The notes: generated from the letters alone by a model not told the origin. A stretch of DNA of 64,000 nucleotides from Microgenomates group bacterium Gr01-1014_7 (GCA_007376405.1 VMGD01000002.1:8159-72158), one strand, 5' to 3'. Positions 1,207 through 17,816 are shown, numbered from the stretch's first letter. Program-made: numbers and translations.

Positions 1207-2037
1207 ATGCCAACTGAAACACTACCATTTGATCCCAACCAAGTACCTAAATTACTAAAAGAGGGTAGGATAAAAGTAGTCAGGAGCCCTCAAGTTACGT
1301 CTTCAGAAAGGGCAGTTTCTACTGATAGGATGACAGAGAGGGCAAAAGATATTTTAGGAAAGGATTTTCTGGGTGTAGAGGCCGTCAGAAATATGGAGGC
1401 AAAACTTAAAGGTGTAGGACAAGCAGTCGAATTTGATACTGCCGCTCTCCCGCCAATCCCTTATACGGAAAAAGACCTTGAGCTAGCCCGTCAACATGGA
1501 GAAATGCTTGTTCTGCGGGTGGGATTAATGCGTTTAGGCGGAAGGGAAGTTCCGCTATCACTTATAAATTTTAGGGAACTATTTAGAACTGATCCACTAA
1601 ATAAGTTATCAACGCCTTACTTCGCATTTAGAAGCGATGCTAATGATTGGTATAAAGATCAGCCTTTTGCAACTAAGGGTGGTGAAATTGGCTTATCTTG
1701 GGCTTTGGTAGCAAAAAACATACTACCAGGCTCAAATAGTAAGACTTTGAACCAACAGGCTCGTGTAATGGAGACTTATGCAACCAATTTACAAAGCCAA
1801 GGTGCAAGTAGAACTGAATTTAGAAGAAGAACTGCCACAGAAGCTGCTTATGATACTTTGTTATATTATGTCAACAATGGTGAGCAATTACTTTCAGATA
1901 AATATGACTGGACTCAAACGCGCACGTCCGACGGCCGCCTCGTCCTTGTTGGGTACTTTGACTCGGGCGGTCTGGGCGTGGACTACTGGGATCCGACGCT
2001 TCAGTATCCGAACATCGGTGTGTGTCTTTCCCGGTAG
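1207..2037 (+). CDS. DGR target (variable) protein; the C-terminal ~40 aa are encoded by VR and probably form a CLec/FGE-like variable ligand-binding fold
   Basis: The ORF ends exactly within the VR. Its C-terminus, ...VGYFDSGGLGVDYWDPTLQYPNIGVCLSR, resembles the ...NxGFRCxR ending typical of CLec/FGE-fold DGR targets. The TR-encoded version is Asn-rich (AAC codons). Confidence 0.75.
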   Translation: MPTETLPFDPNQVPKLLKEGRIKVVRSPQVTSSERAVSTDRMTERAKDILGKDFLGVEAVRNMEAKLKGVGQAVEFDTAALPPIPYTEKDLELARQHGEMLVLRVGLMRLGGREVPLSLINFRELFRTDPLNKLSTPYFAFRSDANDWYKDQPFATKGGEIGLSWALVAKNILPGSNSKTLNQQARVMETYATNLQSQGASRTEFRRRTATEAAYDTLLYYVNNGEQLLSDKYDWTQTRTSDGRLVLVGYFDSGGLGVDYWDPTLQYPNIGVCLSR

Positions 2038-2040
2038 TTT
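1917..2040 (+). repeat. DGR variable repeat (VR)
   Basis: VR is about 84% identical to 3777-3900. Every mismatch except the last pair (2033-2034) corresponds to an adenine in the other copy, and the substitutions go to G, C or T. The 3' 27 bp (2006-2032) are identical, consistent with IMH. Confidence 0.8.
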
Positions 2041-2075
2041 TAGGTACTTGAATTCTTGATTCCTTAGTACTTGTA

Positions 2076-2090
2076 CCCCGCGGCGCGGGG
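2076..2090 (+). other. GC-rich hairpin (ccccgcg-g-cgcgggg) immediately downstream of VR; a DGR cruciform/stem-loop candidate
   Basis: It is a perfect 7-bp GC stem with a 1-nt loop, 36 nt after the VR end, in an otherwise AT-rich context. Confidence 0.55.
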
Positions 2091-2109
2091 TCAAGGCAAA
2101 TTTTACAAA

Positions 2110-3162
2110 TTACTCTGTTAACCAATACCAAATCAAATTTTCCAGTTCTTTTCGGAATCTGTAAGCATTGGCATGGGTAAGATAGCCAAAATAGGATTGA
2201 ATGGTTTGGTTTAAACTATCTTCAGTGATTTTGCCGGATTTAAACTCATTAATTTTTGCTTTAATTTTTCTAAGCAGCCTTCTTTTAGTTTTTGTTCTTG
2301 GTAGAATATGATTGGGAAATATAATGTAACCTAAAAAATCTATTCCGCTTCCGAATTTCCCAAAAATAATTTTATCCGGATGAACCTGTAAAGCTAATCT
2401 TTCATTTAAAAATCTTTCAATGTGAGGAATTAAGCTCTCTAAATATAACTTATCTTGAGAAAGGATCACAAAATCATCAGCGTATCGAAGATAATATTTT
2501 ACCTTTAGCTTATGCTTCACAAATTGGTCAAGTTCGTTCATATAAATATTGGAGAAAAATTGGGATGTCAGATTACCAATAGGTATACCCTTTTTGTCTG
2601 TAAGATCAACTGTTCTGTCGGAATAAAAACTATCAATTATTTTCCAAAGAAGGTTAAGAAAATCTTGATCTTTAATTTTCCTGGAAAATATTTCAAAAAG
2701 AATTTTATGGTTTACTGATGGAAAAAACTTCTTTATATCCAGTTTTACTGACCAGCAAGTACGTTTATTATTTCTACTTACCCTCAGGGCCATTTTTTGT
2801 AAGGCGAATATTCCTTTATGTGTACCCTTATTTTTTCGACAAGAATAGGAGTGAGAAATAAAAGTAGGCTCAAAAATTGGCTCAAGCTCATTGCTGACTA
2901 TATGGTGAACTATTCTATCTATAACAGTGGTCTTATGAATTAAGCGTAGCTTTGGATCCCGAACATAAAAACTGCTATATGTACCCGGATGATATGTCTT
3001 CTCCTGAAGAAGCTTACAAAGATTGGCAAAATTTTCCGGGAAATTTTTCATAAAAAGCTTAACATCTTTCTTTTTCTTCTTACCGACTAAAAACTCTCTC
3101 CAACCACGAAAAATATTTTCCTTTGTGGTAAGATTGCTGTAGATATTATGGTAGATTTTCAT
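2110..3162 (-). CDS. DGR reverse transcriptase
   Basis: RT motifs are present: the YADD box (RYADDFVIL) and the DGR-specific motif IGNLTSQ (I/LGxxxSQ). The N-terminus follows the Y..L...ENL pattern. The gene lies between VR and TR. Confidence 0.9.
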   Translation of the reverse strand: MKIYHNIYSNLTTKENIFRGWREFLVGKKKKKDVKLFMKNFPENFANLCKLLQEKTYHPGTYSSFYVRDPKLRLIHKTTVIDRIVHHIVSNELEPIFEPTFISHSYSCRKNKGTHKGIFALQKMALRVSRNNKRTCWSVKLDIKKFFPSVNHKILFEIFSRKIKDQDFLNLLWKIIDSFYSDRTVDLTDKKGIPIGNLTSQFFSNIYMNELDQFVKHKLKVKYYLRYADDFVILSQDKLYLESLIPHIERFLNERLALQVHPDKIIFGKFGSGIDFLGYIIFPNHILPRTKTKRRLLRKIKAKINEFKSGKITEDSLNQTIQSYFGYLTHANAYRFRKELENLIWYWLTE

Positions 3163-3510
3163 TCACCCTGGCAGGATATACCCTTATTTAATAAAACTTA
3201 CGAGCTCTATAAAACTTTCTACGAATACCTATTGTTGTTCCCCCGAAAAAATAGATATACCATTGGACAAAAATGTGAAACAATCTTACTTGAAACATTA
3301 GAAGCGATTATTCTGGCCAGTAACCTCTCTAAACAAGAAAAATTACCGGTTCTAAAAAAGGCCAGCATGAAGTTGGATGTAGTGAGAGTGTTCTTTAAAC
3401 TGGCTAAGGATATAAAAGTTTTAGAAAATAAAAAATACCAAGTACTTGAATCCCAAACTACAGAAATAGGTAAGATGTTAGGTGGGTGGATTAAAGCTTC
3501 TCAAATTTAA
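3148..3510 (+). CDS. Avd-like accessory variability determinant (four-helix-bundle protein, TIGR02436-like)
   Basis: It is a 120-aa basic helical protein with a C-terminal ...EIGKMLGGWIK ending, like four-helix-bundle/Avd family members. It lies directly upstream of TR on the same strand and diverges from the RT with a 15-nt start overlap. Confidence 0.55.
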   Translation: MVDFHSPWQDIPLFNKTYELYKTFYEYLLLFPRKNRYTIGQKCETILLETLEAIILASNLSKQEKLPVLKKASMKLDVVRVFFKLAKDIKVLENKKYQVLESQTTEIGKMLGGWIKASQI

Positions 3511-3776
3511 ATACAGTATTTTAATCTTTAGAATTTTATGATAATCTGTTTATGGAAGGTTAAAAATCTTCCCTTCTTTTGTAGGTCCCAGAATTCTAAT
3601 TAGCACGTCTAATTAGGAGCGCGGCCAAAAAGAAGTAATGAAACTACTTGCTCTTTTCTGGCGCAGATTCTTTAGAGCTTCAGCTCGCAAGCTGTGCTTA
3701 ATTGATACTGCCGAAAAAATATACAGAGAAGATACATTTGATAAATTCTCAGTGATCAGAGGGAAAAGGGCAATGG

Positions 3777-3900
3777 AAAGCGCACGTCCGACGACAACCT
3801 CGTCAATGTTGGGAACTTTGACTCGAACGGACTGAACGTGAACAACTGGAATCCGACGAATCAGAATCCGAACATCGGTGTGTGTCTTTCCCGACAGTTT
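3777..3900 (+). repeat. DGR template repeat (TR)
   Basis: This is the adenine-rich copy (~32 A). Adenines at the VR-mismatch positions are intact here. Only spurious ORFs cover it. Confidence 0.8.
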
Positions 3901-3909
3901 CAACCTAAA

Positions 3910-3947
3910 AAGAAGCTCTCTTGGTTAAGGGAGCTTCTTTATTTTAA
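3910..3947 (+). terminator. Rho-independent terminator-like hairpin after TR
   Basis: The sequence aagaagctc-tcttggttaagg-gagcttctt forms a perfect 9-bp stem and is followed by tttatttt. Confidence 0.55.
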
Positions 3948-4475
3948 AAGTTACTCAAAAAGAATAATATAGACTGCAAAGACAAGAAAATAAAACTCGC
4001 GAAAATTTTTCCAGCTCAAAAGGAATTTAACAAAATTAATGAAGTGAAACGAAGTAAAAAGTGAAAAGCAGCGCTAATTCCCCTTTTTTGTAACTCCGAT
4101 TCAATTATAGTAGCGATCCCGCCGAAGGCGGGAGAGCGAAGCGATACAATGCGTTGATGGAAAATTTAAAGTACCTTTTTCTTAATCTCACTTGCGATGT
4201 TTATATTATTAATATTGTTTCATAATTTATATTCCCCGCTGTGGCGGGGAAACTCTGGCAAAAAGCGAAAGGAATTTGAATTTTTGCTACTTGTTTTTTC
4301 TGCCGGCAGTTTGTAATATTGTAGATGTAGTCAAACTTTCCCATTCGGCTTTTTAATGGGCATCTTGGGCAAATCCGAATGGGTTTGACTACACCAAGGT
4401 GCCCTTTAAAGTGGAGAAATGGTGAAGTTGGAATAAATCCAACTTCACACCTTATCCCACTTTACCTATTAAATT

Positions 4476-6041
4476 ATGGAACAAACTGCCTTTAACAGTA
4501 ATAATTCGCAAAAATTCTTTTTATATGCTCGCAAGTCTACAGATGTAGAAGATAAACAAATGCGGTCTATTCCGGATCAACTGTTAGAACTAAGGGAATA
4601 TGCCAAGCGTGAAGGATTATATATTGTTGAAGAGCTAACAGAGGCTAAAACTGCTAAGGCTCCGGGTAGAGTGGTTTTTAATAGTATGCTTTCTAGAATA
4701 GAGAATGGTGAAGCGGAAGGTATTGTAGCTTGGCATCCGGATAGACTTGCTCGTAACAGTATAGATGGTGGGAAAATTATTTACCTTCTTGACCTTGGGA
4801 AACTTAAAAACTTAAAGTTTCCCCAACATTGGTTTGAAAATACTCCTCAAGGTAAATTTTCCCTTAATATGGCTTTTTGCCAAAGTAAATACTTCGTGGA
4901 CTCGCTTTCAGAAAATACCAAAAGAGGAATCCGCCAAAAAGTTAAAAGGGGTGAAATGCCAGGACTTGCACCAGTAGGTTATTTAAACATAATGACTAAT
5001 AACAGGAAAATTATAGTCATTGATAAAAAGCGTGCTCTTATTATAAGACAAGCTTTTGAAATGTTTGCTACGGCTAAATATCGTATTCAAGATATTTGCA
5101 ACTTTCTGGCTGAAAATGGCATGGCAAAGGCCAGTGGTAAGCTTTGGAAGAGCGATCGGGTAAGTAAGCAGATACTTTCCAATCCTTTCTATTACGGCCA
5201 TTTTAAATATATGGGCGAGATCCACGAAGGGGTTCATCAGCCAATCATTACAAAGAAACTGTGGGACGCAGTCCAAATCGTGTGGAGGAAGCGAAGTCAT
5301 TCCTGGAAAGAGATGAGACCACAAAAACCTTTAACAGGACTTTTTCGTTGTGGTGAGTGTGGTATGATGATTACCGCCGAACTCCAAAAAGGCTACATAT
5401 ATTATCGTTGTACGAAAAAGTCTAAGGTAAGATCCTGTTCTCAGTTATATATTCGGGAAGAAGAGTTAGATCGACAATTATCAGATCAAATAGCCACAGT
5501 TTCTTTGAGGCAGGATTGGGCAGATAAAATGTTGGCTAAGTTATCGATAGAGGAAAAAAATGTAGCCCAATCCTGTGATATGTTTGTTGGAGAAAAGCAA
5601 GCAGAGATTAAATCTATCAATGAAAAACTCCAAAGACTCCTTGATTCTTATTTAGAGCAAGACATCGAGCGTGAGGATTACCTTGTTAAAAAAGCAGATT
5701 TGCTTGCTTTAAAGAAAAAATTAGAGGAACAAATTTTATCTTTCCAACAAACCAAAAATGCTTGGCTCGAACCAATGAAACAATGGATAGTGGAAGCCGC
5801 CGCGGCGGCTAATATCGCAAGAAGTAAAGACTTAAATGCAAAAAAGGTACTTGCTCAAAAAATCTTCGGCTCGAACCCCACACTAAAAGACAGAAAGGTA
5901 TATTGCAACGCTCTAAACATATGGTCCGCCCTACGGGCGGACCCGCCAACTCGGGACTCGGAGCCGACAGCGGGAATTGAACCCGCGACCCCGTTCTTAC
6001 CAAGAACGTGCTCTACCACTGAGCCATGTCGGCAGAAATGA
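4476..6041 (+). CDS. Large serine recombinase (resolvase/invertase-type N-terminal domain, recombinase domain, zinc ribbon and coiled coil)
   Basis: The N-terminus FLYARKSTDVEDKQ carries the catalytic Ser. A zinc-ribbon CGECG...YYRC and a long coiled coil follow. The last ~26 codons run antisense through tRNA-Thr, so the true stop may be functionally irrelevant. Confidence 0.85.
   Translation: MEQTAFNSNNSQKFFLYARKSTDVEDKQMRSIPDQLLELREYAKREGLYIVEELTEAKTAKAPGRVVFNSMLSRIENGEAEGIVAWHPDRLARNSIDGGKIIYLLDLGKLKNLKFPQHWFENTPQGKFSLNMAFCQSKYFVDSLSENTKRGIRQKVKRGEMPGLAPVGYLNIMTNNRKIIVIDKKRALIIRQAFEMFATAKYRIQDICNFLAENGMAKASGKLWKSDRVSKQILSNPFYYGHFKYMGEIHEGVHQPIITKKLWDAVQIVWRKRSHSWKEMRPQKPLTGLFRCGECGMMITAELQKGYIYYRCTKKSKVRSCSQLYIREEELDRQLSDQIATVSLRQDWADKMLAKLSIEEKNVAQSCDMFVGEKQAEIKSINEKLQRLLDSYLEQDIEREDYLVKKADLLALKKKLEEQILSFQQTKNAWLEPMKQWIVEAAAAANIARSKDLNAKKVLAQKIFGSNPTLKDRKVYCNALNIWSALRADPPTRDSEPTAGIEPATPFLPRTCSTTEPCRQK
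5962..6033 (-). tRNA. tRNA-Thr (anticodon GGU)
   Basis: The reverse complement folds as a canonical cloverleaf: acceptor GCCGACA/TGTCGGC, D-arm GCTC-AGTGGTA-GAGC, anticodon loop TTGGTAA, T-arm GCGGG-TTCAATT-CCCGC, discriminator T. No CCA is encoded. Confidence 0.75.
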
Positions 6042-6112
6042 GCCTCCTGGCAGAATCGGACTGCCGTCATATGTTTACAAAACATACGCACTAACCACTG
6101 TGCTAAGGAGGC
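6041..6112 (-). tRNA. tRNA-Thr (anticodon UGU)
   Basis: The reverse complement gives acceptor GCCTCCT/AGGAGGC, D-arm GCAC-AGTGGTTA-GTGC, anticodon stem TATGT/ACATA with loop TTTGTAA, and T-arm GGCAG-TCCGATT-CTGCC. The T-loop is atypical (C at position 55). Confidence 0.65.
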
Positions 6113-16709: not shown

Positions 16710-17816
16710 ATGCCGGTAATGCTGCAAACTCCTTTTTATGATCCGGGGAAGACTTATGATGAAAATTATAACTATGGTCCATATGGTGCTTTTGCAGACG
16801 GTAAAGATTTAAGAACTAATGAAATTCCAAAAATTGATTTTTTAGGATTTAAGATTAATACTCCGTTTGGAATCCCTGCAGGGCCTCTTTTAAATGCTAA
16901 ATTCTGTAAGGCTGCTTTTGAAAAAGGATTTGATGTTATCCATTATAAAACCAGAAGAAGTAGGGTTTTTCCCACAAACCAGTGGCCTAATGTTTTGTTT
17001 GTGGATGTGCCGGGGGATTTAACCCCGCTAGGCGGGGCTAAAAAACCCTTACTCGGATCAAAAACTACTAACAAAAACCCCACACATTTTAGTATTACCA
17101 ACTCTTTTGGTAACCCTTCCCCCGATCCGGATATTTGGCAGGAAGATATGAAAAAAGCAGTTGAGGCAGAAGGCCCGGGTCAGCTGCTGGTAGCTTCTGT
17201 TGTCGGGACAATCAAAAAGGGGTTTTCGGAAGAGGATTATTTTGATGATTTTGCAAAGTCTGCAAAACTTGCCAAAGAGACAGGAGTCAAGGTAATAGAG
17301 TTAAATTTGTCTTGTCCAAATGTGGCCAATGAGGGGATTATATGTTATGACCTGGAGGCTGTTGAGCGCATCTGTAGAAAAAGTAAGGGATCTGTTGGGG
17401 ATATGCCGCTTCTTATAAAATTGGGTTATTTTTCTCCTGAGGAGCAAAACCTCTTGGAAAATATTGTCAAAAGCATACTTCCATATATTTCCGGCATTGC
17501 TGCCATTAATACTATTCCTGCACCAGTGGTTGATGAAAACGGTAAGCAGGCTTTACCGGGATCTCCTGCAAGGCTGGTGGCTGGAATTTGCGGCGCTTCT
17601 ATTAAATGGGCAGGGCTGGAAATGGTTAAGAGATTAAACCTGATCAAAAAAAAATTAAAATCCAACTTTGCCATAATTGGAGTGGGAGGGGTAATGAAGC
17701 CCGCAGACTATTTTGAATATAGAAAATTTGGCTCGGATTTAGTTCAGTCGGCCACCGGAGCAATGTGGAATCCATATCTGGCACAAGAAGTCAAAAGGAG
17801 GCTAAAGACTCTTTGA
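16710..17816 (+). CDS. pyrD: Dihydroorotate dehydrogenase family protein
   Basis: It has IELNLSCPN and a TIM-barrel flavoprotein pattern, and it neighbours pyrE and pyrF. Confidence 0.65.
   Translation: MPVMLQTPFYDPGKTYDENYNYGPYGAFADGKDLRTNEIPKIDFLGFKINTPFGIPAGPLLNAKFCKAAFEKGFDVIHYKTRRSRVFPTNQWPNVLFVDVPGDLTPLGGAKKPLLGSKTTNKNPTHFSITNSFGNPSPDPDIWQEDMKKAVEAEGPGQLLVASVVGTIKKGFSEEDYFDDFAKSAKLAKETGVKVIELNLSCPNVANEGIICYDLEAVERICRKSKGSVGDMPLLIKLGYFSPEEQNLLENIVKSILPYISGIAAINTIPAPVVDENGKQALPGSPARLVAGICGASIKWAGLEMVKRLNLIKKKLKSNFAIIGVGGVMKPADYFEYRKFGSDLVQSATGAMWNPYLAQEVKRRLKTL

Follow-up and report, generated by a model that had tools for sequence, protein, structure and literature searches.

A GC-rich triloop hairpin downstream of the variable repeat of a Microgenomates diversity-generating retroelement, a probable variant of the retrohoming hairpin/cruciform

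Within a stretch of 64,000 nucleotides from Microgenomates group bacterium Gr01-1014_7 (GCA_007376405.1 VMGD01000002.1:8159-72158; the window, with positions counted from its first letter) there is a GC-rich inverted repeat at 2070-2095 that can form a hairpin or cruciform, and this lies just 3' of the variable repeat (VR) of a diversity-generating retroelement (DGR). The element is recognized by folding, by comparison with shuffled sequence and by its conservation in relatives, and is assigned to neither strand. By analogy with DGRs characterized experimentally, we think that it is probably a triloop variant of the hairpin/cruciform that flanks the VR and promotes retrohoming. The cassette to which it belongs is a complete and intact DGR, with reverse transcriptase (RT), the accessory gene bAvd, template repeat (TR) and VR. 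The question at stake is by what means a DGR locates the recipient VR and integrates mutagenized cDNA there. To our knowledge the hairpin/cruciform is the only element on the target side, besides the initiation of mutagenic homing (IMH) sequence, of known importance, and tests of it have been confined to the DGRs of Bordetella and Legionella.

The VR, defined by the TR/VR match, occupies 1920-2040 on the + strand and includes an invariant IMH-like 3' block at ~2006-2040, within which lies the stop codon TAG of the target gene (2035-2037). A spacer of 72 nt lies between the target gene and the convergent RT gene, whose stop codon is at 2110-2112 on the - strand. The hairpin is intergenic, outside the target open reading frame (ORF), starting 37 nt after the target stop codon and ending 18 nt before that of the RT. 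Its core, ACCCCGC-GGC-GCGGGGT (2075-2091), forms seven pairs running from A2075-T2091 through C2081-G2085, closed by a 3-nt loop comprising G2082, G2083 and C2084. Beyond a bulged T2074 there is an outer extension of four pairs, C2070-G2095 through G2073-C2092, in which CTTG (2070-2073) is paired with CAAG (2092-2095). A first-pass annotation of the sequence had described ccccgcg-g-cgcgggg at 2076-2090 as a perfect 7-bp G/C stem. The string is exact, but a 1-nt loop is physically impossible and the real fold has the 3-nt loop GGC, with a stem of six G/C pairs plus one A-T. The surroundings, put at ~35% GC, have a local GC content of 0.345. Placement of the hairpin 3' of the VR was likewise correct; the separation given as 36 nt is 34 nt when counted from 2040, where homology ends, up to the 7-bp stem, or 29 nt up to the extended stem.

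The prediction of structure that had been called for yields a stable stem-loop. Folding 2066-2099 as DNA gives -11.0 kcal/mol for the + strand (z -3.9, with 0/200 shuffles as good) and -10.6 kcal/mol for the - strand; folded as RNA the corresponding energies are -17.9 and -17.2 kcal/mol. There is no match in Rfam overlapping the hairpin, either at gathering thresholds over the window or with E up to 1 over 1900-4500. We estimated the contribution of chance using dinucleotide shuffles of the window, taking hairpins whose stem reaches 7 bp or more and includes six or more G/C pairs. Such hairpins are expected 0.13 times per 64 kb, corresponding to ~1.5e-4 per 72-nt spacer, and the window has five. 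We conclude that the hairpin is real, and not due to chance. It is highly improbable that the palindrome arose by chance, or that it is a selfish GC-rich repeat of the repetitive extragenic palindrome (REP) or miniature inverted-repeat transposable element (MITE) kind, and has no role in the DGR. GC hairpins in the window do exceed those in shuffles (27 register hits vs 3.0), and similar arms are found at 4232-4251 (TTCCCCGC-TGTG-GCGGGGAA) and 17023-17037 (CCCCGC-TAG-GCGGGG), but against this stand the very low expectation for so short a spacer and the conservation of position in every close relative. A REP or MITE copy was rejected as a candidate; no flanking sequence is common to the VR hairpin and the other GC hairpins of the window.

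Homologues of the RT number thousands and are found mostly in bacteria of the candidate phyla radiation (CPR), the closest being in CPR/Patescibacteria such as Ca. Daviesbacteria. From those that are ~65-88% identical we assembled a close set of 11 further distinct locus versions. These have a common layout of avd (- strand), RT (+ strand) and target (- strand), with 77-110 nt between the two stop codons, and all 11 have a GC hairpin in the spacer between VR and RT. The spacer follows one plan on the VR sense strand, with the stop (CCCGGTAG) followed by three to five CTTG/CTTAG units ~8 nt apart, the GC hairpin, TCG-N3-4-AAATTTT and finally the RT stop. The first-pass annotation would have been weakened by related targets that lacked any conserved hairpin at this point, and the relatives prove to be uniform in having one. 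Because the hairpin is kept at the same place in the relatives, it is most probably the mark, already known, that assists the rewriting machinery in finding its target.

Read on the sense strand, the hairpin is CCCCGC-GAA-GCGGGG in loci L247 and L275, ACCCCGC-GAA-GCGGGGT in L268, CCCCGC-GGA-GCGGGG in L274, CCCGC-GAA-GCGGG in L242, L243 and L270, CCCGC-GTA-GCGGG in L269 and, including one G-T pair, ACCCCGC-AAA-GTGGGGT in L248. In L241 it is nested, with an inner GGA-loop hairpin and GRA loops in both the outer and inner elements. The hairpin of L258 (TCCGCCG-ATT-CGGCGGA) has a different stem and lies 11 nt after the stop, 5' of the repeats, and the position of the hairpin within the spacer can therefore shift between relatives. 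The loops of the close relatives are thus GAA in six cases, GGA, GTA, AAA and ATT in one each, plus those of the nested L241, so that GRA is present on the sense strand in 8/11. The GGC loop of the window is an outlier in this set. A stem core of CCCGC/GCGGG is invariant in ten of the 12 close sequences (the window and its 11 relatives), and with a core so nearly invariant the covariation is weak within the close set; shared ancestry could explain much of the conservation.

A UUCG tetraloop on the RT strand, which would have implied an RNA transcribed from that strand, was considered and rejected; the register is that of a 3-nt loop, GAA when read in the sense direction and TTC on the RT strand. 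In L242 there is an extra small hairpin, GATCAC-GAA-GTGATC (~2270-2290, - strand), in the stretch that separates the CTTG array from the main hairpin, CCCGC-GAA-GCGGG. Taken with the nested hairpin of L241, this suggests that GRA-triloop hairpins have been gained repeatedly in the VR-RT spacer.

More distant lineages provide a better view of the pairing. Three loci in which the RT is 46-49% identical share the module of array, hairpin and AT box but have other stems, these being CCCCGAC-ACTA-GTCGGGG in L099, CCTGCC-GTCA-GGCAGG in L108 and CCGCC-GCG-GGCGG in L149. Each is then followed by TCG(C/A)-N3-4-AA(A)TTTTT. We tabulated the pairs of 14 distinct hairpins by their distance from the loop and not through our alignment (A2), because indels in L241, L242 and L258 break its register. 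At pairs 1-4 from the loop both sides change across the 14 hairpins, with one G-T pair and zero mismatches. Covariation had been proposed as a test of the hairpin, and the stems of L258, L099, L108 and L149 do differ with pairing kept, which we regard as moderate evidence. In L108 and L149 the VR is upstream of the RT on the same strand, the canonical layout, and the RT is not adjacent to the hairpin. The hairpin therefore travels with the VR, and not with the 3' end of the RT gene. RT relatives on viral contigs, at most 44% identical and used as an outgroup only, are mostly without the array and have classic GRNA hairpins.

We have also sought hairpins on a wider scale. TR/VR pairs were called in 276 loci, giving 150 unique VR ends, and the 120 nt downstream were scanned for perfect stems only; imperfect hairpins are missed, and the frequencies are consequently lower bounds. 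A strong hairpin follows 46/150 VRs (31%), in line with the 34% reported among 372 DGRs (PMC5758913), together with 49/148 TRs and 108/808 other ORF ends (13%). GRA or GRNA loops on the sense strand are found in 14/46 of the hairpins after VRs (2/46 on the antisense strand), compared with 0/49 after TRs (1/49 antisense) and 4/108 after other ORF ends (4/108 antisense). GC-stem hairpins with tri- or tetraloops are ~11-fold enriched in the 120 nt after VRs.

These data bear on the possibility that the element functions at the RNA level between the convergent target and RT transcripts, as a factor-independent terminator, a collision barrier or a stem-loop stabilizing the 3' end, in which case its connection to the DGR would be one of position alone. 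We think this unlikely, though it has a number of points in its favor. The location between the ends of two convergent genes is what might be expected, and the RNA folds equally well on both strands. Among CPR loci 18/32 of the strong hairpins downstream of VRs have a long stem with a T-run and are terminator-like; in addition, T-rich sequence follows the L258 hairpin, and on the + strand of the window the core stem is followed at 10 nt by a run of TTTT. However, the 8 nt adjoining the stem contain no T-run, be it on the + strand (tail CAAGGCAA) or the - strand (tail ACAAGTAC), and a scan for terminators made no call. The remaining 14/32 CPR hairpins, like those of the window subfamily, have a short GC stem without a T-run. 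The same cassette has an ordinary terminator architecture 8 nt after the TR, identified by folding and from relatives, where a terminator-like hairpin at 3909-3945 on the + strand comprises an A-tract, a stem of 12-14 pairs and ATTTT (-19 kcal/mol, z -3.8). A hairpin with A-tract, stem and T-run follows the TR in every relative too, and thus the lineage has terminators of the ordinary type. GC hairpins are not a general signal for the ends of genes, as few other gene ends in the window have them, and the G-first loops on the sense strand are specific to VRs. Moreover the module is present after the VRs of L108 and L149, where the RT is not convergent, and terminator features after the IMH have been found in only a minority of DGRs (PMC5758913).

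The hairpin belongs to a larger conserved flank, made up of a CTTG array, the hairpin and an AAATTTT box, which had gone unseen in the first-pass annotation. By pattern search the array in the window is located at 2044-2074 on the + strand (VR sense), where there are four CTTR motifs, CTTG 2047, CTTG 2055, CTTA 2063 and CTTG 2070, with spacings of 8, 8 and 7 nt. The last of these overlaps the outer stem of the hairpin, and the 30 nt from VR to hairpin do not form a neutral spacer. The pattern CTTR-N4-CTTR-N4-CTTR is present once in the window vs 0.13 expected, and its 29 matches in 1.6 Mb of loci all lie just downstream of a VR, on the sense strand. At least four TTG are found in the next 70 nt after 67% of 115 unique CPR VRs, but in only 3% of cases after TRs, 6% of background windows and 0% on the antisense strand. 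Successive TTG are spaced by 7-9 nt in 69% of cases after CPR VRs vs 7.6% in background. A chain of at least three TTG with this spacing follows 62/115 CPR VRs (54%) vs 6/765 other ORF ends (0.8%; Fisher p 1e-55), and three of those six resemble undetected VR ends. The array follows each VR of multi-target DGRs, whatever the downstream gene, and marks VRs and not TRs. Besides the window it is found in L081, L084, L089, L100, L110, L166, L175, L186 and most other CPR loci. No complementary CAAG array was found elsewhere in the loci, and there is no statistical association between array and hairpin; where both are present the hairpin is 3' of the array in 26/28. We found no description of the CTTG array in the literature searched, which did not cover Paul et al. 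2017 (Nat Microbiol), a paper that could contain one.

The AAATTTT box lies at 2098-2104, with no strand assigned, 6 nt after the hairpin in the window and conserved 7-12 nt after the hairpin in the relatives. Its context is TCG-N3-4-AAATTTT in most relatives and TCAAGGC-AAATTTT in the window. In alignment A2 the box is often seen to be part of a small AT palindrome flanked by CG in the relatives. A similar sequence, CGCGAAAATTTTTCC, lies ~100 nt after the TR (3997-4012) and matches AACGGCGAAAATTTCC in L248, L274 and L275. In relatives with the canonical layout the AT box that follows the VR is succeeded by a -10-like GCTATACT or GATATAAT just upstream of avd, which judged from the sequence is possibly the avd promoter, and by its location the flank region overlaps a likely promoter.

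It is conceivable, but rather improbable in our view, that array, hairpin and box together form a composite flank for protein binding or regulation that controls expression of the target or of the DGR operon, and not the integration of cDNA. Array and AT box match or exceed the hairpin in conservation, the presence of the array is independent of that of the hairpin, and the -10-like sequences upstream of avd in the canonical-layout relatives would suit such a role. Yet the flank is unchanged in the window subfamily, in which the convergent RT comes next and nothing downstream is transcribed in the sense direction. In multi-target DGRs the flank is present at every VR, and TRs are not followed by it. 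A further possibility, which we put forward tentatively, is that the array (three to eight CTTG, CTTR or TTTG motifs, 7-9 nt apart, beginning directly 3' of the VR and in many cases followed by an AAATTTT palindrome) is the principal cis signal for the recipient site in CPR DGRs and that the GC hairpin is an optional auxiliary. In that event the array might bind Avd/RT or a host factor, or might favor opening of the DNA.

There is evidence that DGRs of this subfamily operate in nature. Contigs with identical RT, TR and hairpin that derive from different samples bear different VR alleles, and the variable columns of the VR are all at TR adenines, 17/17 for L248 vs L250 (with L255 also listed) and 6/6 for L258 vs L259. 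Since the alleles differ only at TR adenines, DGRs of the subfamily are active in nature, and this extends to those whose loops are AAA and ATT. The GGC loop of the window is therefore no argument for inactivity.

We infer that the active form of the hairpin is DNA, not RNA, and that by analogy with the Bordetella phage BPP-1 it would promote retrohoming. Acting as a triloop retrohoming hairpin/cruciform, it would mark the recipient VR as opposed to the donor TR. Adenine-mutagenized cDNA copied from the TR RNA would replace the VR, and on the BPP-1 precedent the hairpin would raise the efficiency of this process and would not set the exact point of integration. This agrees with the DGR cruciform candidate of the first-pass annotation. 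Its placement and composition fit, the relatives keep the hairpin, the stems change with pairing kept, and there is no T-run.

A number of observations weigh against a retrohoming role. In the close set the whole spacer is conserved, so that selection on pairing is not isolated there, and the distant hairpins were found by asking for a hairpin, making the covariation table partly circular. The GGC loop is neither GRA nor GRNA, and in BPP-1 both the sequence and the size of the loop are critical, and the activity of DGRs with AAA and ATT loops implies either that loop identity matters little here or that the hairpin is dispensable. The distance of 34 nt is at the edge of the published range, and shifting the BPP-1 hairpin lowered efficiency. 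In the wider family only ~30% have a strong hairpin, and the long-stemmed, terminator-like form of 18/32 of those in CPR loci, noted above, also counts on this side. We know of no experiment on any CPR DGR.

The target gene is represented by an ORF call at 1207-2037 on the + strand, encoding 276 aa with the VR at its 3' end and corresponding to residues 687-932 of the 932-aa AAA_5 target in L243. The RT (2110-3162, - strand, convergent with the target) has 350 aa, an RVT_1 domain (E 1e-27) found by domain search, and a YADD motif in its translation. bAvd (PF22296, E 8.8e-19) is at 3148-3510 on the + strand, and the TR, from the TR/VR match, at 3780-3900 on the + strand. Over a 124-nt match TR and VR differ at 20 positions, of which 19 are TR adenines; the sole non-adenine difference, C3895 to T2035, makes the target stop codon. 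There are no further VRs within the 64-kb window, and with a single VR the hairpins of different targets of the same element are not available for comparison.

The target is split in the window. An ORF at 9-1196, running off the start of the window, corresponds to residues 290-676 of the L243 AAA_5 target with 56% identity. It is in a different frame from the ORF at 1207-2037 and 10 nt from it, with AAGGA just 5' of the ATG that opens the second ORF. Possible explanations are a frameshift or pseudogene, an error of assembly, or that there are genuinely two genes here. The RT (- strand, ATG at 3162) and avd (+ strand, ATG at 3148) are divergent, and their predicted starts overlap by 15 nt (3148-3162), so that the promoter of each gene would sit inside the coding sequence of the other. 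The RT is transcribed in the opposite direction to avd-TR, unlike the canonical avd-TR-RT operon.

Downstream of the TR there is a large serine recombinase with Resolvase, Recombinase and Zn_ribbon_recom domains (4476-6112), the ORF of which extends into a pair of tRNA-Thr genes located on the other strand (5960-6033 and 6040-6112). The linkage of DGR and recombinase is also seen in the Daviesbacteria relatives L248 and L249 (1-1457), and an integrative element at tRNA-Thr may be what carries the DGR. In the interval between the TR terminator and the recombinase there is a GC hairpin at 4117-4133, TCCCGCC-GAA-GGCGGGA, with a GAA triloop on the + strand. The hairpin at 4232-4251 mentioned above, with TGTG between its arms, is a second in the same interval, and a block CGATACAATGCGTTGATG (4142-4159) located there is conserved in L248. 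The interval with its two GC hairpins could be an att site or a terminator.

Taken alone the hairpin is an expected feature of a DGR, and wider significance rests mainly on the CTTG array that it terminates. A large CPR clade of DGRs keeps an element that is related to the known one but distinct from it, with a triloop, a longer spacer and a placement between convergent genes, and the periodic CTTG array around the hairpin reaches far more widely through this clade than the hairpin does. Should array and hairpin prove to be recognition signals, they provide concrete sequences that can be mutated to test target recognition in the CPR clade. They would also improve the calling of VRs and targets in metagenomes, where rules based on GRNA tetraloops miss sites. 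The array in particular could make target recognition by CPR DGRs approachable by experiment.

The closest comparison is with BPP-1, where retrohoming is efficient only if an 8-bp GC hairpin/cruciform follows the VR (Guo et al. 2011, PMC3240598). There the pairing of the stem matters and its sequence does not, the GAAA loop is dependent on both sequence and size, and the position of the hairpin affects efficiency without altering the integration site (PMC3240598). Phage DGRs have stems of 7-10 bp with GRNA loops, 4-34 bp from the VR (PMC3240598). The window resembles this type in having a GC-rich inverted repeat just 3' of the VR/IMH, with a 7-bp stem that is within the range of lengths. The sequence of the stem varies among lineages with pairing kept, the relatives have sense-strand loops that begin G-R, and what follows the TR of the window is an AU-rich terminator-like hairpin with a T-run in place of a GC triloop hairpin. 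The separation from the VR falls within the published distances but is borderline, 34 nt being their extreme. It differs from the BPP-1 type in its 3-nt loop (GGC in the window, GAA or GGA in relatives) in place of a GRNA tetraloop, in its location between convergent genes, and in the CTTG array before it and the AAATTTT box after it. The hairpin is thus not a strict member of the GRNA-defined class, and the MyDGR rule (PMC6602519) would miss it because it lacks the GRNA tetraloop.

The DGR hairpins of Nanoarchaeota (DUSEL4) have GRA trinucleotide loops (Paul et al. 2015, PMC4372165). A trinucleotide loop is shared with the window, and GRA itself, a loop type akin to the GRNA of phage DGRs, with the eight close relatives described above. 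The window differs in having GGC and not GRA, in that its hairpin is intergenic where theirs is inside the target ORF, and in its CPR host. Compared with an intrinsic terminator, the window has a GC-rich stem-loop just after a stop codon and between convergent genes, but the stem is short, the loop is a triloop and there is no adjoining U-tract on either strand. Group IIC introns (discussed in PMC3240598) resemble DGRs in being a related retroelement that recognizes a DNA stem-loop near the insertion site. They differ in that their motifs are terminators recognized as single-stranded DNA and that the intron inserts itself, whereas the cDNA tract of a DGR only replaces the VR.

At the level of the loop itself, d(GCGAAGC), from the work of Hirao et al., is reportedly an extra-stable DNA mini-hairpin. 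Exactly this GCGAAGC forms the tip of the hairpin on the sense strand in L242, L243, L247, L268, L270 and L275. In the window the tip is GCGGCGC, without the sheared G-A pair in the loop, and stability comes instead from the longer stem.

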